NCBI GenBank assembly: GCA_964648985.1 | Contig: CAZYMS010000001.1 | Coordinates: 1,215 to 65,214, forward strand | Length of the DNA stretch: 64,000 nucleotides | DNA from: an uncultured Candidatus Saccharibacteria bacterium | GTDB taxonomy: Bacteria > Patescibacteriota > Doudnabacteria > UBA920 | Direction of reading: 5' to 3' | Shown: positions 34,784-64,000 of the stretch, piece after piece | Layout: each line of letters opens with the position of its first letter | How positions within the stretch are numbered: the first letter of the stretch is position 1 | Translations under genes and position numbers: made by a program | The notes under the pieces: generated by a model | Seen by the model: the letters and a program-made list of their open reading frames with translations, nothing else | Databases searched by the model: none | What the model was told of the DNA's origin: nothing

Positions 34784-34794
34784 AGAACGTATAT

Positions 34795-34826
34795 AAAAAG
34801 CCTTGCGGAATTCCGCAAGGCTTTTT
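34795..34826. terminator. Intrinsic terminator (A5, GCCTTGCGG-AATT-CCGCAAGGC, T5)
   Basis: Perfect 9-bp stem. Confidence 0.65.
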
Positions 34827-34902
34827 ATATAGAATTCGGCGGGACACCGCAAGATAAAATATATGATATAATTATTGCAATAAAAAGTAAATACATACAT
34901 GC

Positions 34903-42634: not shown

Positions 42635-44284
42635 CTAGTCTCCGGCCACCCTAAACACCTCTTCTACGTCAGTCATGCCCTGCAGTGCTTTTACTAGCCC
42701 ATCTTGCGCCATAGTAAGGGTGCCATCGCTAATGGCCTGTTTCTTTAAATCCAGCATTGAAGCACTCTTGAGAATTAGGTCCTTCATAGCATCATTTACA
42801 TGAATAACCTCATAAATACCAACACGACCCTTATACCCAAGCCCGTGGCACTGATCACAGCCGGCGGAATGATAAAACTCCAAAGGGTCTGGCAAGATAG
42901 TTGCAGCTGCTGGTGGAATAGCTTGTAGTATTGATTGTACATGTTGCAGCAATGCAGGCTCAAGAGTACTAGTGGTTTTGCAGTGCTCGCACAATCGCCT
43001 TACCAAACGTTGTGCAATAACCGCATTGATAGCTGGAGCAATAATGAACGGCTGAGCACCCATAGTCATAAGTCTTGGCACCGCACCAAACGAATCGTTG
43101 GTATGCAAGGTAGATAACACAATATGGCCAGTCAAGGCCGCCTGAAGAGCAGTATCAGCAGTTTCTCCATCTCGAATTTCACCCACCATAACTATATCTG
43201 GATCTTGACGCAAAATAGCGCGAAGCGCCTTAGCAAAACTAAAATCCACATTGTGGTCTATAGGCGTCTGTTGTATACCTTCAAGCTTATATTCAACCGG
43301 ATCTTCAATAGTTATTATTTTCACTCCGGGGTCATTAAGCTCGTTTAAAAAAGCATATAAGGTAGTTGTTTTACCGCTTCCCGTAGGACCGGTGGTTATT
43401 ATCATTCCATTCGGTTTCTGAAGCTCTGTTTCAATAATTTGCTTAGACCTACCCACAAGCCCCAGATCATCTACTTTCAGACGCACCGCGCCTACACCGA
43501 GCAAGCGAAGTACAAGGCCTTCTCCATACGCCGAAGGAAGGCTCGAAACACGGACATCAATGGGAGCAGTGTCCCACAAAAATGTCATGCGGCCATCTTG
43601 AGGTAAATTTGCGACATTTAATTTAAGTTTGGAAAGTATTTTGATACGTGATACCAAAGCTGACTGCAAAGACTTATCTATATGCAGCATATCCTGCAGA
43701 ACCCCGTCCACACGCAATCTAACTTTAATAAGATGGTCCTCCGGCTCAATATGTATATCTGAGGCTTGAAGCTGCATGGCGAGCCCAAACAAACTACCCA
43801 CTAATTCAGTAATATTTGTTCCTTTTTGTAGATTTGCATCTTTTAACCGAGTCGTAATCTCAACATAATTCTGAGATGACAATAGCCTCACCTCTTCTAT
43901 AACATGTGCATGAGGAGTGACGACATTTTTATAGAACGTTAGGGCATAGGTAAGTCCAGACTTAGACACGACATACGTTTTTATGGTAAAGCGACTTGAA
44001 AGTTCGGCAATTTTTGCTTGCAACAGTTGGTTGCGTGGATCGACGGCAGCAATGCGCAGTTCATTATGATCGCGGGAAAATGGAACAGCTTCTGCTTCTA
44101 CAGCCTCGGGCTCAGAAAACAAGCTAAGCGTGTTTAAGTCTGCTGGAAATGCGTGCAAATTTACGTATGGAAGTCCAAATAACCGTGCCTTTTCTTCTGT
44201 ATTCGCCTCTTCCATTTGCCTATTCATCCGACTGAGTGAATCTGATAGTGTTGTTTTGTTTGATTGTAAGAAGTTTTTAGACAT
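42635..44284 (-). CDS. pilB: Type IV pilus assembly / type II secretion ATPase (PilB/GspE family)
   Basis: Walker A ITTGPTGSGKTTTLYA, Asp/His boxes, C-terminal tetra-Cys zinc motif CEHC...CDQC. Confidence 0.85.
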   Translation of the reverse strand: MSKNFLQSNKTTLSDSLSRMNRQMEEANTEEKARLFGLPYVNLHAFPADLNTLSLFSEPEAVEAEAVPFSRDHNELRIAAVDPRNQLLQAKIAELSSRFTIKTYVVSKSGLTYALTFYKNVVTPHAHVIEEVRLLSSQNYVEITTRLKDANLQKGTNITELVGSLFGLAMQLQASDIHIEPEDHLIKVRLRVDGVLQDMLHIDKSLQSALVSRIKILSKLKLNVANLPQDGRMTFLWDTAPIDVRVSSLPSAYGEGLVLRLLGVGAVRLKVDDLGLVGRSKQIIETELQKPNGMIITTGPTGSGKTTTLYAFLNELNDPGVKIITIEDPVEYKLEGIQQTPIDHNVDFSFAKALRAILRQDPDIVMVGEIRDGETADTALQAALTGHIVLSTLHTNDSFGAVPRLMTMGAQPFIIAPAINAVIAQRLVRRLCEHCKTTSTLEPALLQHVQSILQAIPPAAATILPDPLEFYHSAGCDQCHGLGYKGRVGIYEVIHVNDAMKDLILKSASMLDLKKQAISDGTLTMAQDGLVKALQGMTDVEEVFRVAGD

Positions 44285-44422: not shown

Positions 44423-45595
44423 TTAGACCTGCGTAGGTATAGCCTGATTCAGCGCATCTACTAACTGCTGCTCAATTTTTTCAACAGTAATTGGTGTTTC
44501 TATAATGACAACTTCAAGCCCTGTATCAAGTTTCACATGCTCTACCCCGCTACCACCTAGCACTGCGACCAAGTCATCGACATTAAGCTGAGCATTTTGT
44601 ACCAGAGCAACCTTACTTCCCATAGCGAATGGAACAGCCAGTGCTATAGTAATCATATTATTAACATTTTCATAAAGTTCGGCGAGGACATCTTTAGCTG
44701 TCTCGGGTTTCTCATTAGTTTTTTCAAAGTCCGCTGTAAGCAAAACTGAATATGCGGCAGACCTCCCCTCGAGAACCTTCAAACGAGCTAAACTCCTACC
44801 CCACAACTTAAGAAAACCAAGTCTTTCTGTTTTAAATAGATGTTTAACTACAAGCGGATACTCAGCCCCTGCTGCAATTAAATCTGCAACTACCGCGAAA
44901 GTATCTGGTGTTGTACGAGTACTGCGAAGGCTATCCGTATTTGCAAGAATACCGGCTAAAAGTGCTGTCGCCGCTAACGGCAGGAAAGATTGCTCGTTTT
45001 TTATGGACGATAGCATATGATAAGTCAGCTCGGATACAGAACTAGAAGTCACACTTACTAGGTTCAAAGTGCCGTGGTTTTCATTATGAGGATTTACATC
45101 CATGTTAATCCTGGGCAATGCATAGAATAAATCGGCATGCTCTGAAAAAGTCCTTCCTAACTGTTCAGGACTTTCTACTCCACACAATATAAGAATTTCA
45201 AAGGGTAATTCACTAGGTGCAACGCTCACATCGCTCGGCAGAAACTGGCCTTCTTTAGAACGAAGGTAGATGTTCACTTTACCTGGTAGCGTATCGTAAC
45301 TAAGTTCAGCCAACTGGGCTTTGGTCGTATCTAGGGATATAACAATTTGAGAATATGCAACCTCCAGAGCGTGAACTTGAGTGCTCAGCTCCAAGAACGA
45401 AAGCTTGTGTGGAACTACGCCATCACTAATAACTTCAACTGTTTTACCCAGCGAACGCAGAGCGGCTTGCATGCCTAGCGCAGCCGCCGCTGCGTCAATA
45501 GTGGGAACAGCAGGCAATATAATGCCAATTTTGGTGTATTTCTCTAAAAATGATGTAATAGTTTGTAATGTAGTTTCATCCATATACTTCAACAT
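44423..45595 (-). CDS. DHH/DHHA1-family protein (NrnA-like) with non-canonical catalytic motifs
   Basis: Overall NrnA-like architecture. The DHH-motif position reads LPAVPTIDAAAAALG and the DHHA1 GGGH position reads GGSGVEH. Confidence 0.45.
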   Translation of the reverse strand: MLKYMDETTLQTITSFLEKYTKIGIILPAVPTIDAAAAALGMQAALRSLGKTVEVISDGVVPHKLSFLELSTQVHALEVAYSQIVISLDTTKAQLAELSYDTLPGKVNIYLRSKEGQFLPSDVSVAPSELPFEILILCGVESPEQLGRTFSEHADLFYALPRINMDVNPHNENHGTLNLVSVTSSSVSELTYHMLSSIKNEQSFLPLAATALLAGILANTDSLRSTRTTPDTFAVVADLIAAGAEYPLVVKHLFKTERLGFLKLWGRSLARLKVLEGRSAAYSVLLTADFEKTNEKPETAKDVLAELYENVNNMITIALAVPFAMGSKVALVQNAQLNVDDLVAVLGGSGVEHVKLDTGLEVVIIETPITVEKIEQQLVDALNQAIPTQV

Positions 45596-51145: not shown

Positions 51146-52237
51146 CTATGCCTTATATTCTTCTTCCTGTGCGCTCGGGGTTAAAGTAACGTGCTGCGCT
51201 GCCATTTCAAGTGGGTGGGTGGTAGTAATAAAAGTTTGGAACTTTCCTTGCAGAAACTTAAGCAAGAAGGTACGACGCTGCTCGTCGAGTTCAGACAACA
51301 CATCATCAAGGAGCAGCACAGGCTTGTCTTCTCCTTTACTTAGATACTCAAGCTCAAGAACTTTAAGAGAAAGAATCTGACTACGAAGCTCACCGCGCGA
51401 AGAAAACGGGGAAAGAAATAAGCCATCGCTCTTTAAATTAAAATCATCACGGTGCGGTCCAACAAGGCTCGTAGAAAGCATAATTTCTCGTTGCGTTTGG
51501 TCCGCGAGTAGCTTACGGAGCGCAGCCTCAACCTCTTCCATGGTAGACCCTGGAAGAGTTGCGTATTCTACTTCAACTGGACGGTGGAAACCTGAGATGT
51601 TGCTGTAGATATCGGCAAAGTGTTGATTCAGGAAACTGATAAAACGTTTCCTATGCATAATTATAGGGACACCCAATTTTACTATTTGCTCATTCCAAGC
51701 AATCAGATCGTCGTGAGAGGCTGCCCCACCTCGAATCTGCTGCAATACTCTATTTTTCTGACTTAGTACTTTTTTATAATTTGCAATATCTTCCAAATAC
51801 TGTACGTCTTTCTGTGAAAGGACCATGTTCAAATACCGGCGTCTGCTTTCCGGACTTGCTGTAAACAGGGCAACATCCTCAGGCTCAAAGATAACTACAT
51901 TCAAAAACCCTTGCACTTCTCGGCGGCGCTTTACGACTCCATCCAATTTAAAGTTAGCGTAAATTTTATCCCGCTGTTCTAAAAATATTTCAATAGTATG
52001 GTCCTGCCCTCTGCGCTCCACCACTACACGCACTTCAGCGGTAGTAGTATTCTTCATGAAAATAAACTCTGAATCATCACGAAATGACTTAAATAGGGAC
52101 GCGAAATAAACGGACTCGAGCAAATTAGTCTTACCAACTGCATTTGGCCCCGACAATACTACTAAATCACTCGTAATATCGAGCTGTAATTCTGGGTAAT
52201 TTCGAAAATTCTTGATGGATATCTGTTTAACTCTCAT
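51146..52237 (-). CDS. recF: DNA replication and repair protein RecF
   Basis: Walker A LSGPNAVGKTNLLE, the ABC-like signature region and a Walker B LLLDDVLSELD. Start at MRVKQISIKNF. Confidence 0.85.
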   Translation of the reverse strand: MRVKQISIKNFRNYPELQLDITSDLVVLSGPNAVGKTNLLESVYFASLFKSFRDDSEFIFMKNTTTAEVRVVVERRGQDHTIEIFLEQRDKIYANFKLDGVVKRRREVQGFLNVVIFEPEDVALFTASPESRRRYLNMVLSQKDVQYLEDIANYKKVLSQKNRVLQQIRGGAASHDDLIAWNEQIVKLGVPIIMHRKRFISFLNQHFADIYSNISGFHRPVEVEYATLPGSTMEEVEAALRKLLADQTQREIMLSTSLVGPHRDDFNLKSDGLFLSPFSSRGELRSQILSLKVLELEYLSKGEDKPVLLLDDVLSELDEQRRTFLLKFLQGKFQTFITTTHPLEMAAQHVTLTPSAQEEEYKA

Positions 52238-52345
52238 ATTGTAAATATATAGCATGTCCGAAACAACGAATATACCCGAACCCACGAATATCAACGAATT
52301 GAATTCGTAGTTATTCGTGGATTCGCCCATTCGTAGATTCGGATA

Positions 52346-53452
52346 TTATGTTTTAATGGGCATTACAAGATATATATAATTTTTATCCTCTGGGCTTTGC
52401 AATATTACGGGCGTGGTTGGATTGTTTAGCTTAATATGCACGCTCTGAGAAGTCAAAAACTGAAGCATATCGAGAAGATACTTATGATTAAACAAAATAG
52501 TATCTTCTCCCCCAGTTACTTCAGCTGCAACCTCTACAGTACCCTCTCCTGCATCTTGAGAACGGGCCGAAAGCGTCAACCCACCCCCCGGGCTATACAC
52601 AACGGATATACCGCTTGCACTCTTAGCAAACACAGAAACAGCCTTAAGTGCTGAAATTAATTCAGTACGAGAAGCTGTGATTGAAACTGTGAATTCTTTG
52701 GGGATAATTGCTTCATACTCTGGGTAGCGGGCATCCACCAAACGGGTTGTAATTATAGTTTCATTAACTGAAAAAACTGCTTGATTATCACCAATATTAA
52801 CCTTAAACTCACCGTTTGAATTATGCAAAAGACGGAGCACCTCGCTCGCAGCCCTGGCGGGGATAATAATACTGAAATTGGGGAAAACTTCAGCACCAAC
52901 CTTAAGCACCACCTTACTTTCAGCAAGCCTGTACCTGTCAGTGCCTGCAAGTACAATTTCGTTCTGACCTGAGCGGGTCATAAATACTCCACACAGCTCA
53001 ATTTGCGTTTCATTTGTCGACACCGCAAATAGAACGCCCTCTAACGCATGGAAAAAGTCCTGAGAAGGTAGGGAAATGGCATTCTCGCTTACTGTATCGT
53101 TAATGACTGGAAAATCTTCCGCAGGGACCGTTTTAAGCACTGTACGGTACTTCCCTACTGAGAGTCTTAGACCTTCTGTAACTGTTTCCAATGTAACGGG
53201 CTCTCCTGGAAGATTATTTACCACTTCAACCAAAAGTCGTGCTGGCAGGCATACAACACCATCTTCTTCAACTTTGCAGCGAACAAACTGAGATATCCCT
53301 ATTTCTAGATTTGTAGCACTTATTTTTAACAGACCATTCTGTGTTTGAAGCAGTACATTTCCTAGTACGGCCAAAGTACTACTAGCAGCCACTGCCCTAC
53401 TACAGACGGCAAGTGCATTTTTTAGATTTTCTTGCACCACAACAATTCTCAT
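52346..53452 (-). CDS. dnaN: DNA polymerase III beta sliding clamp
   Basis: Three-domain beta-clamp collinearity (N-terminal ...LAVLGNVLLQ...). Position between dnaA and recF. Confidence 0.85.
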   Translation of the reverse strand: MRIVVVQENLKNALAVCSRAVAASSTLAVLGNVLLQTQNGLLKISATNLEIGISQFVRCKVEEDGVVCLPARLLVEVVNNLPGEPVTLETVTEGLRLSVGKYRTVLKTVPAEDFPVINDTVSENAISLPSQDFFHALEGVLFAVSTNETQIELCGVFMTRSGQNEIVLAGTDRYRLAESKVVLKVGAEVFPNFSIIIPARAASEVLRLLHNSNGEFKVNIGDNQAVFSVNETIITTRLVDARYPEYEAIIPKEFTVSITASRTELISALKAVSVFAKSASGISVVYSPGGGLTLSARSQDAGEGTVEVAAEVTGGEDTILFNHKYLLDMLQFLTSQSVHIKLNNPTTPVILQSPEDKNYIYLVMPIKT

Positions 53453-53503
53453 AGATTATTATTAAATAAATATATAAATAAATTAGTAATAGTAATAAGG
53501 GCG

Positions 53504-53697
53504 GTGGATATGTGGACAAACCGGAATAGAATCAAGAATTATGAATTAAGAATTAAGCGAAAACATATTTTTTATCGACAATGAGTTCGAACAACTTGTG
53601 TATAGTCCGTGTGAGTAAATGGGGAAAAGTGCGGACTTTGTCTTTGGGGCATGAGTTATCAACCACCTATTAGGGGTTTGTACTGTGCTTTTCCACA
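53504..53697. promoter_or_regulatory. Cluster of DnaA-box-like 9-mers in the dnaA-dnaN intergenic region
   Basis: tgtggacaa and gtggatat (overlapping, 53504-53519), ttatcgaca (53572-53580), ttttccaca (53689-53697). Each is one mismatch or fewer from TTATCCACA. Confidence 0.45.
53529..53560. repeat. Degenerate heptamer array (GAATAGA/ATCAAGA/ATTATGA/ATTAAGA/ATTAAGC) upstream of dnaN
   Basis: Read directly. The reverse complement matches the TTAATTCTTAATTCAT motif at 19609. Confidence 0.55.
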
Positions 53698-53731
53698 AGA
53701 TATTTCTTATGCTTGATTCATGATTCTAGTC

Positions 53732-55093
53732 TTATGTCGTATAAAGTTTATCCAAGATAAGGTCTACTTCTTGTTTGAATGATTCTTTTTCCGTAAGCAT
53801 GTTTTGGATTTTTTCTACTGCATGCATTACGGTCGTATGATCTCTCCCCCCAAAGAACTCTCCTATACTGGGAAATGAGCTGGAAAGCTCTTGTCTGGCA
53901 AGAAACATAGCTATTTGTCGCGGTTTTACGAATTCTTGTCTGCGAGACTGTTTTATGAGGTCTTCACCGGTTACGTTATAGAATTCAGCCACTAAGGAAA
54001 CTATCTTTTTTACCGTAACGCCTTTTTTCTTATTATTCATCATGCCCTGAAGCATGCTTTGAGCTTGTTCAAGACTTACAATGCGGTTTTCCATGTCTTG
54101 AAATACCAACAGCCTGTTAAGTGCTCCTTCAAGCTCACGTACATTGCTTTGGATATTTTCGGCAATATAATAGACTATTTCTTCCGGTAGGTTGGTTCCA
54201 CGTTTTAAAAGTTTGGTTCGGAGAATTGCCATGCGGGTTTCTAGGTCCGGAGCTTGGATATCTGCGACCATCCCCCACTCAAAACGGCTTACGAGCCTTG
54301 CCTCAATTGCTGGTATTTCCTTTGGCAGGCGGTCTGCAGTAATTATTATCTGCTTACCTTTATCCCTGAGTTCATTAAAGGTATGAAAGAATTCTTCTTG
54401 CGTTCCCTCTTTTCCCGCAATAAACTGGATATCGTCTATAAGAAGCATGTCTACGGTGCGGTAATGCTGCTTAAAATCATCCATTTTTTTGGTGGAGATT
54501 GCATTTATGTAGTCGTTGGTGAATTTTTCACTCGTCAAATATAAGACTTTTGCCCGTGGATTTTCTGAAATAAGCTTGTTGGCAACTGCATGCATAAGGT
54601 GAGTTTTGCCAAGACCTACTCCCCCGTAGATGAATAATGGGTTGTATTGGGTCCCTGGGTTCTTGGCAACTGCAAGGCTTGCGGCGTGCGCAAGTTCGTT
54701 GTTTTTGCCTATGATGAATGTGTCAAAAACGTACTTAGGGTTAATGTTCGATTGAGCAGTATTTGTAACTTGGGTCGGATATGCTGGAGCTGTTTGGAGG
54801 GGGTCGCTTGGTTGCAGATTTTGAGTAGGTGTGGGTGAGGTTTTCACAATTGTTCCTACTTGGTACTTGATAGTTTTTATTTCCGGAGCAATACCTTTTA
54901 GTGCTTTAAGCATTTCAGTATTGTATTTGCTCGCTATCCAGTCGCGATGGTATGTGGAAGGGACTGCAACAGTAATATTATCGTCAGTTTTTTCAATAAT
55001 ATGGGTATTTTTAAGCCAAGTATTAAAATTTGCTTTAGATAGTGATACTTCTAGATGGCCCAAAATTGCTTGCCAGATCTGTTGGTTGTTCAT
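53732..55093 (-). CDS. dnaA: Chromosomal replication initiator protein DnaA
   Basis: AAA+ Walker A GGVGLGKTHLMHAV, sensor blocks, C-terminal DNA-binding domain ...FGGRDHTTVMHA. Confidence 0.95.
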   Translation of the reverse strand: MNNQQIWQAILGHLEVSLSKANFNTWLKNTHIIEKTDDNITVAVPSTYHRDWIASKYNTEMLKALKGIAPEIKTIKYQVGTIVKTSPTPTQNLQPSDPLQTAPAYPTQVTNTAQSNINPKYVFDTFIIGKNNELAHAASLAVAKNPGTQYNPLFIYGGVGLGKTHLMHAVANKLISENPRAKVLYLTSEKFTNDYINAISTKKMDDFKQHYRTVDMLLIDDIQFIAGKEGTQEEFFHTFNELRDKGKQIIITADRLPKEIPAIEARLVSRFEWGMVADIQAPDLETRMAILRTKLLKRGTNLPEEIVYYIAENIQSNVRELEGALNRLLVFQDMENRIVSLEQAQSMLQGMMNNKKKGVTVKKIVSLVAEFYNVTGEDLIKQSRRQEFVKPRQIAMFLARQELSSSFPSIGEFFGGRDHTTVMHAVEKIQNMLTEKESFKQEVDLILDKLYTT

Positions 55094-55443
55094 AAAAAAG
55101 AGTACATACGTAATTAAGGGTAATGAATTAAGTAAAAATACCTTTATTTATTACGTAATACTTACTTGCTTGATTCTGATTTACTTATCTTATCAAGGTA
55201 GTTATCAACATGCTAGCAGGCAATAATACTGCTTATATAAGCGGATTAGGTGTTTAACTGTTGATTGCCTGTGGATTACTTGTGATTTTTGTGGATATTG
55301 ATAGTGAATAATGGGTTAATGAGTTTAACCTGTTTGGTTATTTATAGGTATTTATATATAGATATAGTATGTTGATAGCAATGAGTATTATCAAATCCTA
55401 TAAAGCAATCTAATACATAATGAATTAACGATATATAGTCTAT
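55094..55443. promoter_or_regulatory. Candidate oriC segment upstream of dnaA: DnaA boxes plus AT-rich unwinding region
   Basis: ttatcaaca (55202-55210), tgtggatta (55270-55278) and tgtggatat (55290-55298), each one mismatch from the consensus, followed by a very AT-rich stretch at about 55300-55440. Confidence 0.45.
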
Positions 55444-55469
55444 AAAAACCCCTTATTTAAGGGGTTTTT
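55444..55469. terminator. Bidirectional terminator (A5, CCCCTTA-TT-TAAGGGG, T5) after the giant gene
   Basis: Hairpin flanked by A and T runs, 8 bp 3' of the giant ORF stop. Confidence 0.6.
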
Positions 55470-55476
55470 ATATCAA

Positions 55477-58400
55477 CTATTCAGTTACTATCTCGGGTTC
55501 CGGGTCAACTGCGGGGGTAGGTTCGGGGGCCGGTGTTTCACTTTCTGCGCCATCACCACCTTCCTCAGTGGTGGGGGATGGAGGGTCTGTTTGGTGTGTA
55601 TTTTCTGGTGGGGTATTGTTTTGTACTACTGGTGCCTGCTGAACGATTTGTGTTACTTGCTGGAAAGTGGACAAAAGCATGACCCGAATAGAGCCTGTAT
55701 TGTCGGGGGTGCTATCTAGAGAAATTCCAAATACTTGACCCTGGGCTTCCGATGGAAGCTTTGCAGCTTTTCCAGCAAAGGTTGATGCAGTAAGCTTGTC
55801 GCCTAGAGATACGCTCCCATTCACAAATACCTTTTTGTAGGTTCCTGTTATGACGATGCTTACATATTCACCTGGTTTAATAGTTGTTGGGTCGTCTGTA
55901 ATAGGGGAGTCAGGGCTTATATTAAAGTCTGAAAGGTTGCGGTCTGCTACGCCAACAATAATTGTGTTTGCACCTGCTACTGCTTTTGCAATGGTGAGAG
56001 TGGGTTGGTCACCCAGTATTGGTTCCTCTGTTGCGCCAGTAAGCATAAGTAAGTCCCCTTGGTGTATGGTTTCGTTGCTGGTATTCTTTGCCACTATTGC
56101 GGTAGAACCTAATATTCTACCAAGCACAGCAACGTCTTTCTTTACAACCAAGGTGCCCGTGAGTATGGCAGTGCCTTTGGTGTTTATGGTAAAGAGGGAA
56201 GTATCTGCATTGGTTATTTCCAGTACTATGCCACTTGCGAGGTTTGCATTAATATGAACGGTACCATCGTTTGCCACGAGGAAGTTGTCCATGCCGTCCT
56301 TTTGTAGCTGTAAGAGATTACCACTATCCTTTTGATTTATTATGAACGAAGTATCGTGGCCTTCAATTGTTCCGCCGCCAACTTCATTTATTACCTGTCC
56401 ATCTTGTTCTCCAACAGTAAAGGTAAATGATGGTTTGGAGACATTGCCTTTAGGGTCTTGAATAAGAGAGGTGTTGTTTAATTCTTTGGTTGCATTTACC
56501 AAAGCAGCAAGGATTGGGCGGTCCGATAGAGATAGATAACCTTGTGGGTCAGTATCTACTGCCTCAGGGATTGCTGTTTGGATATTCTGAGCGCTGAATC
56601 CAGCATTAAGGAAAGTTTGGTCTAGGCCTGATAGAGCGTTCCAGCGATAGAGGATCGGATCTATTGCCATTATTGACGAAAGGCCGCGGTCAAATGCTCC
56701 TTGTACATCTTTTAGTCGAATATCAGAAGAGCTGGTAAGGTTCCCCGATGCATCTGAGCTCACAGTACCAGTGCCGAAAGCGTGGATACGGAAACCACCT
56801 GCTCCGGAAATGGTTACACGTTGGTTTACGCCATTTGTGAAGAACGCTATGGGGGCGTTGGCTCCATTGTAGAAGTTAAGCGAATTGGCGCCTCCAAAAG
56901 TCGTTTCAGTTGAGCTACTGTAAATCATCTGTCCGCCATATGCATTTGAATCATTTCCCAAGGCGATACGTGCGCTCGCGGAAGATCCGGAATTGTTATT
57001 ATAGACTCTGAGAATGCTATAGGTATTTTGACTCTTTTGAATATCTACCGTGCTTAGCGAATCAGGGGCGGCCGTTCCTATTCCAACTCGACCATCGTTT
57101 TGGATTATCAGTCCCGGGCTGTTTGATGAGTCAATTACGCTTAGTAATGCCGGTAACTTATCTGGGGTGGTGTCATTAGCGTTGTTAGAGAAAGCAGTGT
57201 CAACCGTCAGTGAGGTATCGGACGCAATAGCAGTAACCGTCCTGGTTTCTCCGGTAACTGTGATGCGGTCGCCCACGGCCAATTCAGTAAGAAACGCAGT
57301 GCCGCTGCCAGTAACTGTAGTTGATGCAGCTGGGTCGATATCTCCGGTTAGCTCAGATGTGGCATTTGCTTTAATATTTGCGGATCCGATGAGCCGCAAG
57401 CCTGGTTGACTAGTCACGTTGGAGATTGTTGCAAAATTGGTGCTTACGTCGCTAAATCTATATCTTGCTCCTGTTGTTACTCCACCTGTGCTGAAATCGA
57501 ATCCGCTTACGTTGCTTGTGGCGATTGAACCGTAGGTGTCGTATGCTTCATTGAATGTTTTAATATGATACGGAGCATATCCCACATCGCTTAATGAGCG
57601 TATATACATACCAGTGGTGTAACCGCTTGCTGCAGCATCCCATCCGTCAAAGTTGAAAGTGAATGCGTTTGATGTTGCGCTTTCACCACCCCCGACTGAT
57701 TCGCGGCTGTTGACTACTAGGCCCATGCTAGCGTTCGTGTTGCCCCTTGAGCCGTTACGCACGTATATACCTGCGGTCGACTGTTTTTCCAGTTGTGCTC
57801 CCCAAGCATAGTAGGCAGTAGTACCGTTGTTGATTATGAATGTTACTGTGCCGGTTGAAGAACCGTTAAAGGCTTGGGTAACGGTAAAGCGTTGCCAGCT
57901 AGTAGTAACTGTCACCGTGTTGGCGGTACCGGTTTGGTTCCCGGAGTCTAGTCGTAAGTTTACCGTGCCGGAGCCGGATGACTTTTTGAGCCACACAGAA
58001 CCTGTCCAGGTGGTGCTGGTAGAAGAAGTAGAGAGCCAGTCTGCTTGTTTTACGTTATCGGTAGAGCTTCCACCTGCGCCAATTGTGTCCGCAGTTGTGT
58101 AGCCGTCCGGTCCTGTGGTGCTGTTGGCGGTTATGCTGACACCTGTTTTGGTCCACGCGGCATTGTCTAATTCTTCCGTGTATTTTATACGATTTTCGCT
58201 TCTGCCAAATCCACCCTGTGGCGAGTACATATATCCAGAGTCCAAAAGCAGGTCTGATCCATCCCCTAAGTTTAATCTTTCAGATGGGGTTGTTTTTGCG
58301 ACACCTATATTACCGCCGGCAAATATTGCTGCGTAGTTCGTATCTCCGGAAGTTGGTTCTTCCACGTAGAGTCCAATCTTGGTGGTTGTGCCTGTGCTGT

Positions 58401-61400
58401 GGGTGTTTGAGTTGGCTATGTAAGCACCATAAGAGTTAAGTGTGCCTCCTGTAGTGAGCCTTCCGTTGGCTTGCGCGAATATACCATAAGAATTTACTGT
58501 TGCGCCGGTAGTGGAATCACTCGAAGTTGGTAAGAAATATCCGCCGTATATATTGGTTGTTCCACCGTTGCTGGCACCCGTGCTGCTGCTAGGGGCAGAG
58601 TAAATACCGTATATGTCCCTAGTATTTGCGGATATGGCACCTGTTGCGTTGGCTGAGAAATATCCGCCATAGAGGGCATATGAATTGCTGGTAGAGTCAG
58701 ATGTGACGTTGGAATACAATCCATAACCAGTTTTGCCTCCGTTTCCTGTCATAGTTAGATTGCTTTGCAAGTTGTAATTTGTTTTATTCGTAGCCGTGCT
58801 GTCGGTTCCGTCAATTTTTATGCCGTATCCGGTGCTAGTACTGCCGGAATAGTCTGGTGCAAAGTAGGCGAGTACGCCGGCAGTACTACCACTTCCTACA
58901 TCCGAAACGACTTTCATAAAACCAGAAGATGTCCCTGTGATAACCCCGGTGGACGTCGGACCAGTAAGTGAAAGGGCGGACCCGGTTGTTAGAGAAGTCA
59001 TGGATATTGCCTGACCAATGCCCACCGTTGAAGAGTTTGCCGCTAAGTTGATAAACGTGGCCGCACCTGTGGTGGAAGTAGAGCTAAGGTTAATAAGGCT
59101 GCCGGTGAATCCGGTGGTGGTTCCGGTCTGGGCAATGTCAATGTATTTAGCCGAGGTTTGGCTTGCGCCGTTGGCTGCGATAGACATCATGGTGCCGGAT
59201 GTAAGGCTGTTGCTGTTGAAGGCAAGGAGTCCGGTCCCCGTGTAAGCGCCACCATTTGCGCTAATGTTCAGTGCGGTACCGGTAGATGCTGTGCCCATCA
59301 CTAATCCCATAAGTTGGCCACCTGCCATAGATCCACCACCAGTGACCTGAATACCGGTACCGCTGGTAATGCCGGTGGTTGATATATTTAAGGCTGTGCC
59401 TGTAAAGCTGGCTGTATTATTTGTAAGGTTTACTAAGGTGCCCGCAGTAGAAGCGGACGAGGTGACATTGAGCAACCCTCCGGTAGAGGTGTATGCTCCG
59501 CTGTGGCTGATTTGTACTAAACCATTTGCGATAGCCGAAGTTCCCGAAGCAGACACTTTCAAAGCGGCGCCGCTTGTAATACCTGAGCCAGCAGCTATGT
59601 TTGTAATTGTACCGGTTGTTATGCCGGTGCCAGACACGCTTTGTACAACACCGCCTGTGGTTGCGTTGCCTGTGACGTTGAGTAGGCCGCCGCTGCCAGT
59701 GTATGCCCCACTTGCCGTGAGTTGTACTATACCGTTTGTTACTGCGCCAGTGGTGGCGGAAGTAACTTTTAAGGCTGAGCCGGATGTAAGGCCGGTAGCA
59801 GAAGAGGTGATAGAGAGGTTGTCTGTTGTGGTGGTAGCACCCCAGTCTAATGTTTGGGTAGTAGTGCCCATGTTTATGGCGCCATTGCCGCTGGGGTCGC
59901 CAATAGCGTCAAATGCCGTTGCCGCACCCGCGCAGCCTGTACAAGAAGTAACCGTTAAGGCGCCACCACTGGTAAGTTTTGCGACACTTGTATTTGCGAC
60001 TTGGAAGTCGAAAAAGTTACCCGTAAAGCTTGCAGGATTGGCCCCGATGTATGTTCCGTTGGTCGAGCCGCTGGAAAGAGCTGTGTTTGAAAGATTGAAT
60101 AATGCATGCGTTGCAGAGGCGTTTATAGCCGTACTAATAGAAAGGGGGTCTACCGGGGTGCCCGTGCCAATGCCAAGCCCTGTCGAGTTCCAAATTCCCG
60201 TGGTTGAGTTGTTAACGCTGAAGGTAATGTTGCCACCGCTTGATCCAGAAACACCAGCTCTTAATAGAAGGTTGCTTGCGCCGCTGTCTCCATTGTTTCC
60301 AACTGAGACAGTTGCCGCTGGTTGGTACCAATAGCCAGAAGTGGCACTAAAATTGGTAATGCCTTGACCGATTGTAGAAATACCACCGGCCTCATTTAGG
60401 CTAAATGCAGTTGTTCCATTAAGTTTTACATCTATTATTCTTCCGTTAAACCCGCTTGGTGCGTTTATACCAAGACCTGTGCCGCTTGTGGACCACCCGG
60501 TAGACGTCGCTCCGCTTGCTTCGACTAAGAGTTGGGGTTTGGTGGTGGTTGAGTCACCACCAGTGAACCACGAGCCACTTAATTTGGCTCCTGGGTTGGA
60601 TGCTGCACCGTTCGATCCAATGTGTAAGAAAGCGGTAGGGGAGGTGGTCCCTATTCCAACATTGCCACCAGTAAATACTGCTCCATAATTGTTGGTTGCG
60701 CCGGTTGGAGCATCAATATATAGCCCATATCCGTTGGTTACGGCGCCTGAACCAGTAGTAAGGTCTGCCGTGCCAATTCTGAGCCCTACCGCATTGGTAA
60801 TGGCTACGCCAGTAGAACCGGCTGCTATGGGAGCAGAAGAAATAGTTACGCTGTTTGCGTTAGTAATCGCGACTTGTGTTGCGTCATTGTCTTGTATGGT
60901 AGGCGCGTTAAATAAGAAGCTGTCCATTGCAGTAGTAACAGCAGTAGAGCCAGTAAGCGTAATAGTAGGGGAGGTAAAGGTCCCCGTCGTATACTCTGCG
61001 CTTGTCGCGCTTGCGACGGTTTGGGCTGGGGCGACGACATGTAAAGCGGAGCTGGGGTTAGTGATGCCAATGCCGATTTCTCCCGCAAAATAGCTGTCAG
61101 AAGTTGAGGAGCTGTATATGCTGTAATTTCCAGTAGCGGGTACACTAGAACCTAAAACCAGGTTAATGTAGTCTGAGGCACTCGTAGAAGCATACGCGTG
61201 CAAACCTACATTGAGCACCCCGCCACCTGCTACAGTAGCCTGGAATTGACCTGCTATATTTGTATACGCATTGTTTGCTATTGCGTACAGACCTATGTTC
61301 GTATTGTCAGTCCCGCTAGTGCTGTTGGCAAAGTACCCAGTATAGGTAGTTTGGTTGTTAGCACTCGTGCCAGCAGAAGAAACATTTAATGCCTTTTGAG

Positions 61401-64000
61401 TGTTAGACGCAGCGCCAGTACCTGTAACTGCGATAGTAGCCAGAGATCCCGAGGTTAGCGAAGAGCTGGCCAAGGAAAGGGCGGTACCCGTAGTCAGAGA
61501 GTTTGCTACATAAGATAATCCTGTTGTAGTGGTGCCCGTAAAGTTTTGGGTCCAGGTATTAGCTCCTTGGTTAAGAACAAGAGCCGCATCCAGGTCCATG
61601 GTATCTTCAAAGTCTGTGTAGTCTAGGGTGTCGTCATCTACTTCACCTCCAGAAATTGTAGTACCCAGTACTGTCTGTAAATCGCCGCTTGAGAGTTGCA
61701 ATCCGGTGCCTACAAACTCATCTATTGCGTCACTGCCAATAGTAATGGTTTGAGCTGCAGCTATGGTGATGCCTGCATCAAAGGTTGTGGCGTTGGTTAT
61801 ATTTCCGCCAGACACAGTAAGGTCTCCTGCAAACGTACCGTTGCCGGATGAATCTATAGTGAGTTTATCGCTTGTTCCAAGCGCTGAACCAGAAATCTTA
61901 AATTTGTCGCTATCGGAATTGTCGATTCCTATAGTAAACGTGTTTGTGCCATCTGCGAGTTCAAAGCCGATTTGCGGATCGCCCGTGCTTGTGTTTCCGA
62001 TACTTATTTGAATAGGGCTGGAAGAGGAGCCTAATACTTCTAGTTTTTGATCCGGTGTAACATCGCCAATACCGACATTGCCATTCGTATCAATGCTTAA
62101 GAACGGATTGGTCCCGGGTGTGGTGCCGTCGCCAATTTGAAAGGTGTCATCATCATCGCCCCCTGCGTCATCTTGTACTCCCATCCAAAAATCAGTATCA
62201 GTAGCGGTGGTTGCGTTGAGTACCAGGCTCGGATCTGCTTTTGTGATGGTTTGGTTTGCGCTAAATACATTGGCCTGGTTTAAGTAGGCGACATTGTTCA
62301 ATGTTCCCGCTGTGTTAATGTTCGTCCCACTAAGCAAATAGTTGGCTGCGTCAAATGAGGTGTAGCCACTATCATCACCGAGCCTTGCTTGCAGTGTCGC
62401 GCTGCTCCGTTTAAGGGCAGGGAAGGAGGTTGTTGCTCCACCAAAAATAAGTAAGTTAAATGCGTTTGTGGCGCTATTTTGCAATAATAAATTAGAGTCA
62501 GCAGGAGAGCTTATAACACTGCGACCGTTAAATCCAATATACCTACTTGCTGCGGCGTATATGTCGTTTCCGCCGAATATAGTACTGGCGGTTGTTACCG
62601 TACCATCACTTTGTACAGAGAGTTTGCTAACGCCGCCGGTCTGCAAATCTAACAAATATTTGCCTGCGCTCCCGGTCGCTGTTTCAGTGGCGTTTACTAG
62701 AAGGGCGGTATATCCCCCAGCTCCGCTTTGGTTAATGACTGGTGCTATGCGTGCAAAAGTTTGAGCTGCCGTGCCAGTCAGTTCGCCAGTCGCTCCGGCA
62801 CTATTTACATCGAATGCCACAGGTGTAGAGGTGTTGTTAGAATCTGCTGCTTGTTGTACATGGAGTTGGGAAGTCGGCGCATTTATACCAACGCCAACAT
62901 TGCCTCCAAAGTAATTATTTCCCGCAGCGGCGTATAAGGCGTAGTTTGCTGCCCCATTGGTGGCAGATAGGTCTAACGCTATGTTTATACCACTTCCACT
63001 TTTGCTATTGCTAACAGATGCGCCATAGGTAAGATTCCCGTTTGAATTTCCAGAGTTTGAGACATTTAGTACTTGTTGCGTAGATCCTGAAGTGTTATCG
63101 GAAGTCGAACTAAATGTAATTACTGCCCCTGAAGTTACAGTACTGCTTGTCGCGTATAGGCCCGAGCCGCTTCCGCTCCCACTTGTAACTGAGCTAGAAA
63201 TAATAACCGATCCAGTGCCATTGGGGGCGATAAGCAGTGCTTCGTTTGTGCCGGTAGTAATATCTGTGGTAACGCCATTGAATTTCAGTCCGCCAGAAGA
63301 ATCTATTTGGAATAAATCTCCAGAGCCCACTGTTAGTAAGGCTGCTGGTGTGGTGTCGCCAATACCGATGTTTGTGCCATTTGTGAATAATACTGTTTGA
63401 TCATCTATGGTTGTGCCTGTTGATGGGTAATATCCAAAATAACCAGCAACACCACTGGCCACGGTTCCGGCGCCACATGCACCCCAGGAAGGAGCTGCGC
63501 TCGTATTGCCTGTTAAACATTGTCCTGTAGTACCTGCTGCGGTTACCTGAACAGCGCTCGTGCCATTGCCGTAGAGTACGCCATTTGTAGTGAATGTATT
63601 CGCACCCGTACCACCTTGTGCAACAGTCACCAGGGCATTATCCGTTAAGATGGTTGCTGAAGCGTTTGGTAAGGTAAATGTTTTGGTAGAAGTGGTAGGG
63701 CCAGTGAATGCAGTAAAGCCATTACCCGTACCACCATTGGCAGCTCCGAGAATGCCTGATACTTCAGCGGTAGCTAAATCTACTGCGGTCGAAGTAGAAC
63801 CACTACCCGTAAATAAGGAGGCGGTTAAAGTATCTGATACATATGCATCAGTCAGGGCAGTGCCGTTCCAAGTGCCTGTGGTAATTACTCCAGTGTTGGC
63901 GGTAACAACTAAACCATTGTAGGAAGCAGCTCCTGTGACAGCACCAGTCAGGGTAAGGGTGGTAAACGACCCACCAGCAGTACAAGCAAACGCACCAGTA
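55477..64000 (-). CDS. Giant (>2,840 aa) Thr/Gly/Ser/Ala/Asn-rich fibre-like surface protein with internal S74 intramolecular-chaperone domain and Pro-rich C-terminus; 5'-partial (continues past window end)
   Basis: The minus-strand frame stays open, with no stop, from 63630 to base 64000. I translated it by hand: ...TILTDNALV(GTG-start)TVAQGG. A CBM/LamG-like jelly-roll segment is present. An S74 block SSSDIRLKDVQGAF...ILYRWN...FSAQNIQTAIPEAV lies at about 56510-56740. The C-terminus is PAPEPTPAVDPEPE. Confidence 0.8.
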   Translation of the reverse strand, partial: TGAFACTAGGSFTTLTLTGAVTGAASYNGLVVTANTGVITTGTWNGTALTDAYVSDTLTASLFTGSGSTSTAVDLATAEVSGILGAANGGTGNGFTAFTGPTTSTKTFTLPNASATILTDNALVTVAQGGTGANTFTTNGVLYGNGTSAVQVTAAGTTGQCLTGNTSAAPSWGACGAGTVASGVAGYFGYYPSTGTTIDDQTVLFTNGTNIGIGDTTPAALLTVGSGDLFQIDSSGGLKFNGVTTDITTGTNEALLIAPNGTGSVIISSSVTSGSGSGSGLYATSSTVTSGAVITFSSTSDNTSGSTQQVLNVSNSGNSNGNLTYGASVSNSKSGSGINIALDLSATNGAANYALYAAAGNNYFGGNVGVGINAPTSQLHVQQAADSNNTSTPVAFDVNSAGATGELTGTAAQTFARIAPVINQSGAGGYTALLVNATETATGSAGKYLLDLQTGGVSKLSVQSDGTVTTASTIFGGNDIYAAASRYIGFNGRSVISSPADSNLLLQNSATNAFNLLIFGGATTSFPALKRSSATLQARLGDDSGYTSFDAANYLLSGTNINTAGTLNNVAYLNQANVFSANQTITKADPSLVLNATTATDTDFWMGVQDDAGGDDDDTFQIGDGTTPGTNPFLSIDTNGNVGIGDVTPDQKLEVLGSSSSPIQISIGNTSTGDPQIGFELADGTNTFTIGIDNSDSDKFKISGSALGTSDKLTIDSSGNGTFAGDLTVSGGNITNATTFDAGITIAAAQTITIGSDAIDEFVGTGLQLSSGDLQTVLGTTISGGEVDDDTLDYTDFEDTMDLDAALVLNQGANTWTQNFTGTTTTGLSYVANSLTTGTALSLASSSLTSGSLATIAVTGTGAASNTQKALNVSSAGTSANNQTTYTGYFANSTSGTDNTNIGLYAIANNAYTNIAGQFQATVAGGGVLNVGLHAYASTSASDYINLVLGSSVPATGNYSIYSSSTSDSYFAGEIGIGITNPSSALHVVAPAQTVASATSAEYTTGTFTSPTITLTGSTAVTTAMDSFLFNAPTIQDNDATQVAITNANSVTISSAPIAAGSTGVAITNAVGLRIGTADLTTGSGAVTNGYGLYIDAPTGATNNYGAVFTGGNVGIGTTSPTAFLHIGSNGAASNPGAKLSGSWFTGGDSTTTKPQLLVEASGATSTGWSTSGTGLGINAPSGFNGRIIDVKLNGTTAFSLNEAGGISTIGQGITNFSATSGYWYQPAATVSVGNNGDSGASNLLLRAGVSGSSGGNITFSVNNSTTGIWNSTGLGIGTGTPVDPLSISTAINASATHALFNLSNTALSSGSTNGTYIGANPASFTGNFFDFQVANTSVAKLTSGGALTVTSCTGCAGAATAFDAIGDPSGNGAINMGTTTQTLDWGATTTTDNLSITSSATGLTSGSALKVTSATTGAVTNGIVQLTASGAYTGSGGLLNVTGNATTGGVVQSVSGTGITTGTITNIAAGSGITSGAALKVSASGTSAIANGLVQISHSGAYTSTGGLLNVTSSASTAGTLVNLTNNTASFTGTALNISTTGITSGTGIQVTGGGSMAGGQLMGLVMGTASTGTALNISANGGAYTGTGLLAFNSNSLTSGTMMSIAANGASQTSAKYIDIAQTGTTTGFTGSLINLSSTSTTGAATFINLAANSSTVGIGQAISMTSLTTGSALSLTGPTSTGVITGTSSGFMKVVSDVGSGSTAGVLAYFAPDYSGSTSTGYGIKIDGTDSTATNKTNYNLQSNLTMTGNGGKTGYGLYSNVTSDSTSNSYALYGGYFSANATGAISANTRDIYGIYSAPSSSTGASNGGTTNIYGGYFLPTSSDSTTGATVNSYGIFAQANGRLTTGGTLNSYGAYIANSNTHSTGTTTKIGLYVEEPTSGDTNYAAIFAGGNIGVAKTTPSERLNLGDGSDLLLDSGYMYSPQGGFGRSENRIKYTEELDNAAWTKTGVSITANSTTGPDGYTTADTIGAGGSSTDNVKQADWLSTSSTSTTWTGSVWLKKSSGSGTVNLRLDSGNQTGTANTVTVTTSWQRFTVTQAFNGSSTGTVTFIINNGTTAYYAWGAQLEKQSTAGIYVRNGSRGNTNASMGLVVNSRESVGGGESATSNAFTFNFDGWDAAASGYTTGMYIRSLSDVGYAPYHIKTFNEAYDTYGSIATSNVSGFDFSTGGVTTGARYRFSDVSTNFATISNVTSQPGLRLIGSANIKANATSELTGDIDPAASTTVTGSGTAFLTELAVGDRITVTGETRTVTAIASDTSLTVDTAFSNNANDTTPDKLPALLSVIDSSNSPGLIIQNDGRVGIGTAAPDSLSTVDIQKSQNTYSILRVYNNNSGSSASARIALGNDSNAYGGQMIYSSSTETTFGGANSLNFYNGANAPIAFFTNGVNQRVTISGAGGFRIHAFGTGTVSSDASGNLTSSSDIRLKDVQGAFDRGLSSIMAIDPILYRWNALSGLDQTFLNAGFSAQNIQTAIPEAVDTDPQGYLSLSDRPILAALVNATKELNNTSLIQDPKGNVSKPSFTFTVGEQDGQVINEVGGGTIEGHDTSFIINQKDSGNLLQLQKDGMDNFLVANDGTVHINANLASGIVLEITNADTSLFTINTKGTAILTGTLVVKKDVAVLGRILGSTAIVAKNTSNETIHQGDLLMLTGATEEPILGDQPTLTIAKAVAGANTIIVGVADRNLSDFNISPDSPITDDPTTIKPGEYVSIVITGTYKKVFVNGSVSLGDKLTASTFAGKAAKLPSEAQGQVFGISLDSTPDNTGSIRVMLLSTFQQVTQIVQQAPVVQNNTPPENTHQTDPPSPTTEEGGDGAESETPAPEPTPAVDPEPEIVTE

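Follow-up and report, generated by a model that had tools for sequence, protein, structure and literature searches.

A putative giant surface fibre related to the mosaic adhesive trimers of Bdellovibrio, encoded next to the replication origin of a Patescibacterium

The mosaic adhesive trimer (MAT) family, described in 2024 by Caulton et al., comprises cell-surface trimeric fibres of Bdellovibrio bacteriovorus that combine a signal peptide, a conserved, beta-rich N-domain of ~130 aa directly behind it, a capping loop of the form V-G-G/N-pi-x-x-P-x-x-x-L, and either an S74 domain with an SDxxxK motif or an alternative adhesive tip (PMC10769870). Surface display has been shown for these fibres, as has glycan binding for one member; Bd3182, a protein of 922 amino acids (aa) with a model length of ~550 Å, carries a self-cleaving S74 domain with Ser782 as the catalytic residue (PMC10769870). 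No Patescibacteria are among the other predators for which MAT relatives have been tabulated (PMC10769870), and the literature searched contained no paper linking MAT or S74 fibres to this group. Here, we describe a giant gene at the edge of a 64,000-nt stretch of DNA (hereafter the window) from an uncultured Patescibacterium (assembly GCA_964648985.1, contig CAZYMS010000001.1, positions 1,215 to 65,214), whose predicted product is a relative of the MAT fibres.

In our assessment, the gene rather probably encodes a Sec-exported, homotrimeric, and very long adhesive fibre of the kind represented by MATs and phage tail fibres. Its kinship with the prey-recognition fibres of Bdellovibrio makes the protein a candidate for host recognition, a function suggested by homology. 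The novelty would lie in the presence of a giant, MAT-like S74 fibre in a Patescibacterium, at a locus that is conserved beside the origin of replication (oriC) yet internally hypervariable; the kind of fibre itself is already known. A first-pass annotation of the window had proposed a fibre-like surface protein, its domains, and its position at the origin, all of which hold; its link to a PilB-family ATPase does not, and the protein, which it had not recognised as a characterised family, has described relatives.

Capping-loop units, chaperone domain, and distal tip

The relationship to the MAT family is carried by eight GNVGIGTxxPxxxL units, most of which are preceded by a stretch rich in Y-G-x-Y, and by an S74 domain. 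Units 1 to 5 were identified by motif scan, alignment, and profile match to Bdellovibrio MAT structures, units 6 and 7 by motif scan and alignment, and unit 8 by motif scan. Residue numbers throughout are those of the window (aa 1-2840).

55477-64000, minus strand: giant gene, 3' 8.5 kb (aa 1-2840; stop codon at 55477-55479; 5' end beyond the window)
63328-63378, minus strand: capping-loop unit 1, GTNIGIGDTTPAALLTV (aa 208-224)
62857-62907, minus strand: capping-loop unit 2, GGNVGVGINAPTSQLHV (aa 365-381)
62032-62082, minus strand: capping-loop unit 3, GNVGIGDVTPDQKLEVL (aa 640-656)
61033-61083, minus strand: capping-loop unit 4, GEIGIGITNPSSALHVV (aa 973-989)
60619-60669, minus strand: capping-loop unit 5, GGNVGIGTTSPTAFLHI (aa 1111-1127)
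60136-60186, minus strand: capping-loop unit 6, degenerate, STGLGIGTGTPVDPLSI (aa 1272-1288)
58267-58317, minus strand: capping-loop unit 7, GGNIGVAKTTPSERLNL (aa 1895-1911)
57043-57093, minus strand: capping-loop unit 8, GRVGIGTAAPDSLSTVD (starting at aa 2303, inside the segment that precedes the S74 domain)
56440-56727, minus strand: Peptidase_S74 intramolecular chaperone auto-processing (ICA) domain (aa 2425-2520; catalytic Ser2425 and Lys2430 in SDIRLK at 56710-56727)

A profile built from the eight units of the protein matched exactly five of 177,635 distinct PDB sequences, all of them fibre tips of Bdellovibrio MATs: 8OND (Bd2133, E 1.3e-14), 8OJN (Bd3182), 8OML and 8ON4 (Bd1334), and 8OL4 (Bd2439). 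Only profiles were successful; single-sequence phmmer searches of the PDB with the whole protein or its C-terminal 950 aa returned nothing but noise (TREX1 and a xylanase carbohydrate-binding module, E about 0.1-0.5). The capping loop is present with the consensus V-G-I-G-T-x-x-P-x-x-x-L, which is one residue longer than the published motif. Among 441 retrieved proteins, 145 possess the GNVGIGT unit, with up to 13 copies apiece.

The S74 domain matches Pfam PF13884 at aa 2425-2481 (28.5 bits with the full protein sequence, 31.6 bits with a tile; cut-off 22). SDIRLK (aa 2425-2430) fits the SDxxxK motif, and both its Ser and its Lys are kept in 28 of 32 aligned homologues. The model of the domain has a predicted local distance difference test (pLDDT) score of 85-95, and its fold matches the chaperones of MyRF (the best structural match), T5, and K1F, in agreement with the phage-tail-fibre-type S74 domain seen in the first pass. 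A profile of the C-terminal region that includes the segment preceding the S74 domain matches Bd3182, Bd2133, other MAT tips, phage fibre tips, and MyRF. Nothing was gained beyond the S74 domain when Pfam was run on ten overlapping tiles of 420 aa with E up to 1, and NCBIfam gave no match for the giant protein and two of its orthologues.

The region between units 7 and 8 and the S74 domain contains three further elements, which together would form the distal tip.

57745-58197, minus strand: jelly-roll beta-sandwich resembling carbohydrate-binding modules (CBMs), with conserved W..PDG..TAD...WGAQLE (aa 1935-2085; AlphaFold, Foldseek)
57166-57351, minus strand: promiscuous mini beta-barrel of 62 aa, LTGDIDPAASTTVTG...GDRITVTGETRTV... 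(aa 2217-2278)
56728-57129, minus strand: pre-S74 segment with unit 8 (aa 2291-2424), the predicted mature distal tip after cleavage

The jelly roll, which had been suspected to be CBM- or LamG-like, is modelled by AlphaFold with a pLDDT >90 over aa 1935-2084, and in a Foldseek search of the PDB, CBM22, CBM4, and CBM16 rank first and the CBA120 TSP4 tailspike and Pa193 tail fibre next (E 3.5e-6 to 1e-4). Its relatives at the sequence level are proteins of about 400 aa, and 31 of the 40 sequences in the jelly-roll alignment (the window segment and its homologues) match PHROG 5939 'tail protein'. Judging from the model, the jelly roll is a candidate glycan-binding domain. The mini-barrel is 84% identical to one copy and 70% identical to the second copy of a duplicated insert in the flagellar hook protein FlgE of Ca. 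Brocadiales and weakly matches the Pfam Dna2_Rift barrel; by its sequence, it looks like a module that moves between unrelated extracellular filaments.

The remainder of the protein is stalk-like. Its composition, determined on a 2,890-aa NCBI protein that is 100% identical to the giant protein (P0001, from a 101-kb contig), is dominated by Thr (15.1%), Gly (13.4%), Ser (11.8%), Ala (10.7%), and Asn (7.4%), which sum to 58% and account for the richness in these residues reported earlier. Two stretches stand out.

63475-63807, minus strand: stalk module of the 'GGTG...TFTLPNASATILT' type (aa 65-175), common to ordinary phage tail-fibre ORFs
59050-59832, minus strand: degenerate tandem repeats of ~70 aa, TSG-x-ALKVT...GGLLNVT (aa ~1390-1650)

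The module at aa 65-175 is the part of the protein that is most common among other giant homologues. The repeats form the only clearly periodic stretch, with an autocorrelation peak at a lag of 70 aa, and are undetectable at the DNA level.

Orthologues, module exchange, and the proposed fibre

Syntenic orthologues of the giant gene are present in three related genomes and encode proteins of 4,117 aa (P0002, in L058), 3,529 aa (P0004, in L057, GCA_964490395.1), and 2,411 aa (P0005, in L011, a metagenome-assembled genome (MAG) of 'Candidatus Doudnabacteria'). A survey of synteny with dnaA, as recommended in the first pass, found the order giant gene-dnaA-dnaN-recF in all three. P0005 falls into the same 90%-identity cluster as MBL8030725.1, which NCBI had already named 'tail fiber domain-containing protein'; together with the kinship to the MAT fibres (PMC10769870), this overturns the notion of an uncharacterised family. 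The nearest labelled relative of the window is a 'Candidatus Doudnabacteria' MAG (DnaA 81% identical), and many of the loci that share modules with the giant gene are labelled Ca. Saccharibacteria.

All three orthologues start with GTG and share the N-terminus M-AK(Q/H)NLKTILNFRKRTKLYALLAL.GVALNW.PLFA..AQA|TVPKYINFQGKL, in which a basic n-region, a hydrophobic core, and an AxA cleavage site constitute a Sec-type signal peptide that is followed by a conserved domain. This domain ('INFQGKLT...FEFKLYD...LWTE') has no match in Pfam and occurs in the orthologues and in about 34 of ~84 giant proteins (1.6-4.9 kaa), mostly from MAGs of Patescibacteria, that have blocks in common with the giant protein. 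Most of these 84 homologues possess either an N-terminal hydrophobic segment or a helix-turn-helix (HTH) domain followed by a transmembrane (TM) segment, which suggests that the N-terminus is the cell-proximal end. The Sec-type signal peptides of the orthologues and the homology of the units to those of prey-recognition fibres of Bdellovibrio make a role in host interaction at the cell surface, as envisaged in the first pass, the best reading of the protein.

Relative to L057 or L058, the window shows identities of 95-97% for DnaA, 91% for DnaN, and 96% for RecF. The giant protein is alignable to any single orthologue over only 32-47% of its length, in blocks of 40-87% identity, and the lengths of the orthologues vary from 2,411 to 4,117 aa. 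The breakpoints of block homology coincide with module borders, as expected for a mosaic exchange of tips: a C-terminal cassette common to P0004, P0005, and P0085 starts at aa 2423, two residues ahead of the catalytic Ser, and the block homologous to P0005 ends at aa 1893, two residues short of capping-loop unit 7. Because the CBM-bearing region (aa ~1930-2200) has almost no counterpart among close relatives, variation is greatest in the distal part, a pattern that recalls the receptor-binding proteins of phages and the 'tip swapping' put forward for MATs.

Downstream of the S74 domain, the protein continues with two further sub-domains and a tail.

56110-56427, minus strand: post-S74 sub-domain A, beta-rich (aa 2525-2630; a separate unit in an exhaustive search, query positions 10-115; pLDDT about 50-56)
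55675-56082, minus strand: post-S74 sub-domain B, 'beta-tulip' (aa 2640-2775; fold like phage capsid-decoration proteins and the base of the phi29 head fibre)
55480-55644, minus strand: acidic low-complexity Pro/Thr/Glu tail (aa 2786-2840)

The module formed by A and B is also found without an S74 domain, as the C-terminal end of both short proteins and other giant ones. The tail, which corresponds to the Pro/Glu-rich C-terminus noted earlier, contains 12 Pro, 12 Asp or Glu, and no Lys or Arg in its 55 residues and is probably disordered; in homologues, the composition of the tail that follows domain B is conserved, its sequence is not.

In the mechanism that we propose, a signal peptide like that of the orthologues (..AQA|TV) would move the chain across the single membrane, and the conserved N-terminal domain would hold that end at the cell surface. 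By analogy with homologous fibres, three chains would then fold from the C-terminus, nucleated by the S74 domain, into a long, beta-rich stalk with eight capping-loop units. Motif and fold of the S74 domain are in place for Ser2425 and Lys2430 to cut the chain before Ser2425 after trimerisation; such a cleavage would release a C-terminal fragment of 416 aa that consists of the chaperone, domain A, the decoration-protein-like domain B, and the acidic Pro-rich tail. The distal tip (aa ~1935-2424), comprising the CBM-like jelly roll, the mini-barrel, and the last beta-helix unit, would thereby be exposed and might bind glycans on the surface of a host or prey. Modules, chiefly the tip and the S74 cassette, appear to be exchanged by recombination among relatives, and parts are common with phage tail fibres; if this exchange serves to alter binding, the locus would act as a variable determinant of host range. 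Scaling ~2,640 mature residues from the ~550-Å model of the 922-aa Bd3182, a crude extrapolation, gives a putative fibre length of roughly 0.2 micrometre.

Several points weigh against this interpretation. The signal peptide of the giant protein is predicted from its orthologues, as the 5' end of its own gene was not recovered. Unlike in phage fibres and the MATs of Bdellovibrio, the S74 domain is not at the C-terminal end, and since 416 aa follow Ser2425, the picture of a 'disposable chaperone' may be incomplete. The available part of the protein lacks an anchor motif (LPXTG, lipobox, or C-terminal TM segment). The stalk-like parts are poorly modelled as monomers (mean pLDDT of 60.8 over aa 2291-2800). 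Finally, the binding of a host would be an analogy, and CBM-like domains are found also in enzymes and coat proteins.

A fibre of this kind might instead form part of a general envelope or coat layer as in Vampirococcus, with functions in spacing, protection, or the decoy of phages, and an escape from phages or grazers would then account for its variability. It has been proposed that giant membrane-associated proteins form a fibrous coat on candidate phyla radiation (CPR) cells (PMC8080830), and the low-complexity, Thr/Ser/Gly-rich composition and acidic tail of the giant protein are in line with such a role, as is a position near oriC, which would raise gene dosage; hypervariability fits a target of phage adsorption equally well. 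However, the closest characterised relatives are adhesins for which display on the surface and binding of glycans have been demonstrated, Pfam searches of the whole protein and its tiles revealed neither SLH nor S-layer domains, and the variability peaks in the distal, CBM-bearing region and not in the stalk, as expected of a receptor-binding protein. Because variability is concentrated in the distal tip, we consider a generic coat function unlikely.

The part of the protein that follows the S74 domain raises another alternative. A canonical S74 or ICA domain occupies the terminal ~130-155 aa after the catalytic Ser, and to our knowledge, the only characterised internal ICA domain is that of MyRF. 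If the giant protein contained a release switch like that of MyRF, A, B, and the Pro-rich tail would be a functional anchor or cargo, and a trimer-dependent cleavage would free the fibre or the module. The length of the C-terminal fragment, the independent occurrence of the A+B module, and the resemblance of domain B to trimeric, capsid-binding decoration proteins argue for this possibility, as does the top structural match to MyRF, whose internal ICA domain frees an N-terminal trimer from its membrane anchor. Also 47 of the 81 S74-bearing homologues retrieved have 200-700 aa after the motif, but this sample is skewed, as the post-S74 region formed part of the query. Moreover, no TM segment or known wall-anchor motif lies downstream of the S74 domain, the models of domains A and B are of moderate confidence only, and N-terminal signals and anchors across the family point to the N-terminus as the cell-proximal end. 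On balance, a release switch seems quite unlikely, and we retain the simpler notion of an adhesive fibre whose chaperone would be cleaved off.

Two arrangements among the homologues differ from that of the giant protein. In a second class (P0007, P0012, P0014, P0018-P0020, P0025, P0030, P0033, P0062, and P0066), the proteins begin with a cytoplasmic HTH domain (PF12728, PF00376, or PF13411), and a TM segment at about 100-280 aa replaces the signal peptide; these would be membrane-anchored giant fibres with a DNA-binding-type N-terminus. Three loci that share N-terminal modules (L033, L034, and L036) encode giant fibre ORFs with another conserved C-terminal beta-domain, ending in ...(F/S)NW(W/L)I(V/F)(N/K), which is an alternative to the succession of S74, A, and B.

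Position beside the origin, extent of the gene, and neighbouring genes

Downstream of the giant gene and on the same strand lie dnaA, dnaN, recF, and a YbaK-like gene, all identified with Pfam.

53732-55093, minus strand: dnaA (followed by dnaN at 52346-53452 and recF at 51146-52330)
55202-55298, spacer between giant gene and dnaA: cluster of three DnaA-box-like 9-mers, the upstream half of a bipartite oriC
55449-55464, no strand assigned: hairpin CCCTTATTTAAGGGG with T-runs on both strands, beginning 13 nt past the stop codon of the giant gene (terminator scan)

The two spacers that flank dnaA (clusters at 55202-55298 and 53511-53697) contain 6 of the 21 one-mismatch DnaA boxes of the window within ~0.66 kb, and the GC skew changes its sign at about 53-53.5 kb. 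The clustering of DnaA boxes around dnaA and the flip of the skew place the giant gene beside the origin, as the first pass had concluded. Transcription of the giant gene probably terminates at the hairpin. In L057, the whole upstream block, the giant gene, and dnaA have a negative skew, which flips at the dnaA-dnaN spacer and places oriC there; therefore, the giant gene is encoded by the lagging strand, with its transcription running head-on to replication. The lagging-strand, head-on block comprises the giant gene, dnaA, and, in the relatives, an upstream cluster of surface genes and extends over at least 20 kb (window 53453-64000; L057:1-20600), an unusual orientation for so long a gene.

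The region upstream of the giant gene in the relatives (L057:663-6961, L058:795-7096) encodes six exported proteins of 306-375 aa and no phage genes. Three of the six are paralogues that match or weakly resemble WxLIP_PGBD and possess a signal peptide, a C-terminal TM segment, and a basic tail. Two others end in ...TYVATGNF or ...TYITTAQF, which recalls the WxL surface-complex loci of Gram-positive bacteria, and a protein with CHB_HEX_C, Fn3_assoc, and dockerin domains is encoded farther upstream.

The GC content at third codon positions (GC3) of the giant gene is 0.43, compared to 0.34-0.42 in housekeeping genes. This native value led us to reject a horizontal acquisition of the gene; its higher overall GC content is due to the second codon positions, i.e., the amino acid composition.

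These features bear on the possibility that the gene encodes the tail fibre of a phage, prophage, or tailocin, i.e., the receptor-binding protein of a virion and not a cellular surface fibre. The S74 chaperone, the decoration-protein-like fold of domain B, the match of the relatives of the CBM domain to PHROG tail proteins, and a weak match to PHROG 33119 (long tail fibre) are all compatible with such an origin, as is the module at aa 65-175, which recurs with stretches of 50-78% identity in tail-fibre ORFs of 210-2,500 aa (three of them cut by a contig end) on 29 IMG/VR contigs. However, these ORFs lack GNVGIGT units with one exception, and the C-terminal 550 aa have no close relative in IMG/VR. 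The gene is flanked by dnaA, dnaN, and recF and, in the relatives, by the WxLIP-like surface cluster devoid of phage genes; it has kept its position in three related genomes; its GC3 is native; and the orthologues start with Sec signal peptides instead of a virion-attachment domain. A virion protein is therefore very improbable, and a cellular fibre that shares modules with phage fibres remains our preferred explanation.

The first-pass annotation had predicted that one very long gene continues past the edge of the window. The minus-strand frame (55477-63999) runs without interruption through 2,840 sense codons to its terminal stop and, in the other direction, is open up to the edge of the window, so the GTG at 63630, taken as the start in the ORF track, is internal. 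Logan contig L001 (run SRR13208906), which differs from the window by a single mismatch (position 46215, outside the giant gene) in 20,269 nt compared, extends 354 nt beyond the edge; a search for a stop codon or frameshift in this extension found none within the 118 further codons, and the giant protein thus has a minimum length of 2,958 aa. A different run yielded a third contig, which covers the last 2.1 kb of the gene and has 14 mismatches over its 5.6 kb.

The only in-frame start in the 118 added codons is the GTG ('MALAAISS') that NCBI used for P0001. This start looks as if it were imposed by the end of the contig and not real. In an alignment of P0001 with P0002, residue 1 of the former pairs with residue 211 of the latter (87% identity). 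Since a break within the 5' part of the gene seems to have occurred in both assemblies (window 63850-64000; L001:1-354), the annotation of 2,890 aa is probably short by about 210 aa. L001 is collinear with residues 164-355 of P0002 (83% identity), and its first residue extrapolates to a position near residue ~143; accordingly, ~142 residues are still missing, and the full length should be ~3,100 aa. The dnaA-anchored contigs stop 354 nt past the window, and none of the retrievable contigs contained the true N-terminus; an exact look-up of P0001 for the 5' end of the gene returned no record, and JGI metagenomes contained no match to a 43-mer from the far end of L001.

An assembly chimera or a decaying pseudogene, which might be suspected because the contig ends within the gene, the NCBI start is an internal GTG, and giant repetitive genes are easily misassembled, is hardly credible given the agreement of two independent assemblies within the gene and the few differences in the third contig, a stop-free frame of 8.9 kb in a genome of 42-48% GC, the absence from the gene of DNA-level repeats that could collapse, and intact full-length orthologues with the same start and end architecture in three relatives.

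The PilB gene (42635-44284), which the first pass had combined with the giant gene into one attachment apparatus, is located ~11 kb away. It is separated from the giant gene by nine genes of mixed orientation (dnaA, dnaN, recF, the YbaK-like gene, a nucleotidyltransferase gene, a gene with a bPH domain, ruvB, a VanW gene, and tsaE) and adjoins polA on its far side; no other pilus genes were found adjoining it. The proposed connection was rejected on this gene order. Immediately upstream of PilB, an ORF of 390 aa (44423-45595) without a Pfam match might encode a divergent pilus-assembly protein.

Variation by a diversity-generating retroelement was rejected, as no DNA repeats involving the giant gene, whether tandem or resembling variable and template repeats, were found within the 64-kb window, which does not include the region upstream of the gene. 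DNA repeats of 40 nt or more occur in the window only in a tandem pair of DUF642-domain paralogues (384 and 395 aa; 33629-36090) with stretches of 72-86% identical DNA. A protein of 896 aa with an F5/8 type C (discoidin, galactose-binding-like) domain (25696-28386) is a further candidate for a surface or glycan-binding protein. At 37472-38485, a RhuM-family virulence domain and a Fic/DOC domain are combined in one protein, whose gene adjoins a DinB-family gene and polA. Searches of the window for tRNAs and Rfam elements found none.

Implications and comparison with known systems

The locus touches on the question of how ultrasmall episymbiotic bacteria choose and hold their hosts. In the literature searched, no factors are implicated in this besides type IV pili and a few proteins that are lectin-like or contain dockerin domains. 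A fixed, head-on locus beside oriC, a tip and S74 cassette that are exchanged among strains and have modules in common with phage tail fibres, and an internal S74 switch could be combined into a bolder reading, in which a phage-derived, MAT-type fibre of ~0.2 micrometre, about the size of the cell, is the primary determinant of host range, and a MyRF-like internal S74 domain releases a functional C-terminal module with a fold like that of capsid-decoration proteins. We regard this combination as tentative and, taken as a whole, doubtful; if it were correct, a phage-style logic of receptor binding, beyond type IV pili alone, would be central to host choice in CPR bacteria. If the fibre is an adhesin for host recognition, Bdellovibrio and Patescibacteria, which are unrelated small predators or parasites, would share a phage-derived receptor-binding architecture, whether by convergence or by inheritance, and the giant gene, through its position upstream of dnaA, would be a concrete target that is easy to locate. 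The mosaic pattern also provides a natural experiment on how modules pass between the fibres of cells and those of phages.

Two other classes of surface adhesins were considered and rejected. A trimeric autotransporter adhesin would be expected to match a YadA-type anchor or head, neck, and stalk families of Pfam, none of which were found in the tiles with E up to 1 (PF05658 occurs in distant homologues only). A sortase-anchored adhesin of the Gram-positive type is contradicted by the absence of a C-terminal LPXTG motif, a maximum Kyte-Doolittle hydrophobicity of 1.5 over 19 aa, and a tail without Lys or Arg.

Like the giant membrane proteins of Vampirococcus and the products of the giant genes of Omnitrophota, the giant protein is very large, predicted to be exported, and repeat-rich, and those proteins have likewise been proposed to mediate host contact in episymbionts with small genomes. 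They differ in their domains, which are either of the WD40, PKD, DUF11, integrin, and fibronectin types or SecA-like with antiparallel beta-helices; S74 domains or MAT units have not been reported. The ICA domain of MyRF (7DC3) is similar in its internal position, but in position only: MyRF is a transcription factor of the endoplasmic reticulum membrane with a TM helix after the ICA domain, whereas the giant protein has neither a TM helix nor a DNA-binding domain.

With phage tail fibres and tailspikes, such as the K1F endosialidase (3GW6), T5 pb1 (4UW8), and the tips of S16- and T4-type long tail fibres (6F45, 8JOV), the giant protein shares the S74 fold and its Ser-Lys motif, a chaperone that follows a beta-helical tip, a CBM jelly roll of the phage-tail type, and modular recombination. 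In contrast to these fibres, the giant gene is located outside a phage genome, a predicted Sec signal takes the place of the virion-attachment N-terminus, the protein is several-fold longer, and an additional module follows the chaperone.

The closest parallel is provided by the S74 subgroup of the Bdellovibrio MATs (Bd3182 and Bd2133). The host of the giant gene is a monoderm Patescibacterium, whereas Bdellovibrio is a diderm predator, and with ~3,100 aa, the giant protein is ~3 times longer than known MAT fibres (about 430-1,900 aa for the MATs listed in PMC10769870). It comprises eight capping-loop units and a non-terminal S74 domain with ~320 aa (A, B, and the tail) after it, and its gene is present as a single copy in the window at a conserved, oriC-adjacent locus, unlike the 21 dispersed paralogues of Bdellovibrio. 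Both are non-phage, cellular fibres (the giant protein by prediction) built of beta-helix units like those of phage fibres, with the capping loop V-G-x-G-x-x-x-P-x-x-x-L, an S74 domain with SDxxxK, mosaic and swappable tips, and, as far as a comparison by description can tell, a signal peptide and a conserved N-terminal domain, which are here represented by the orthologues.

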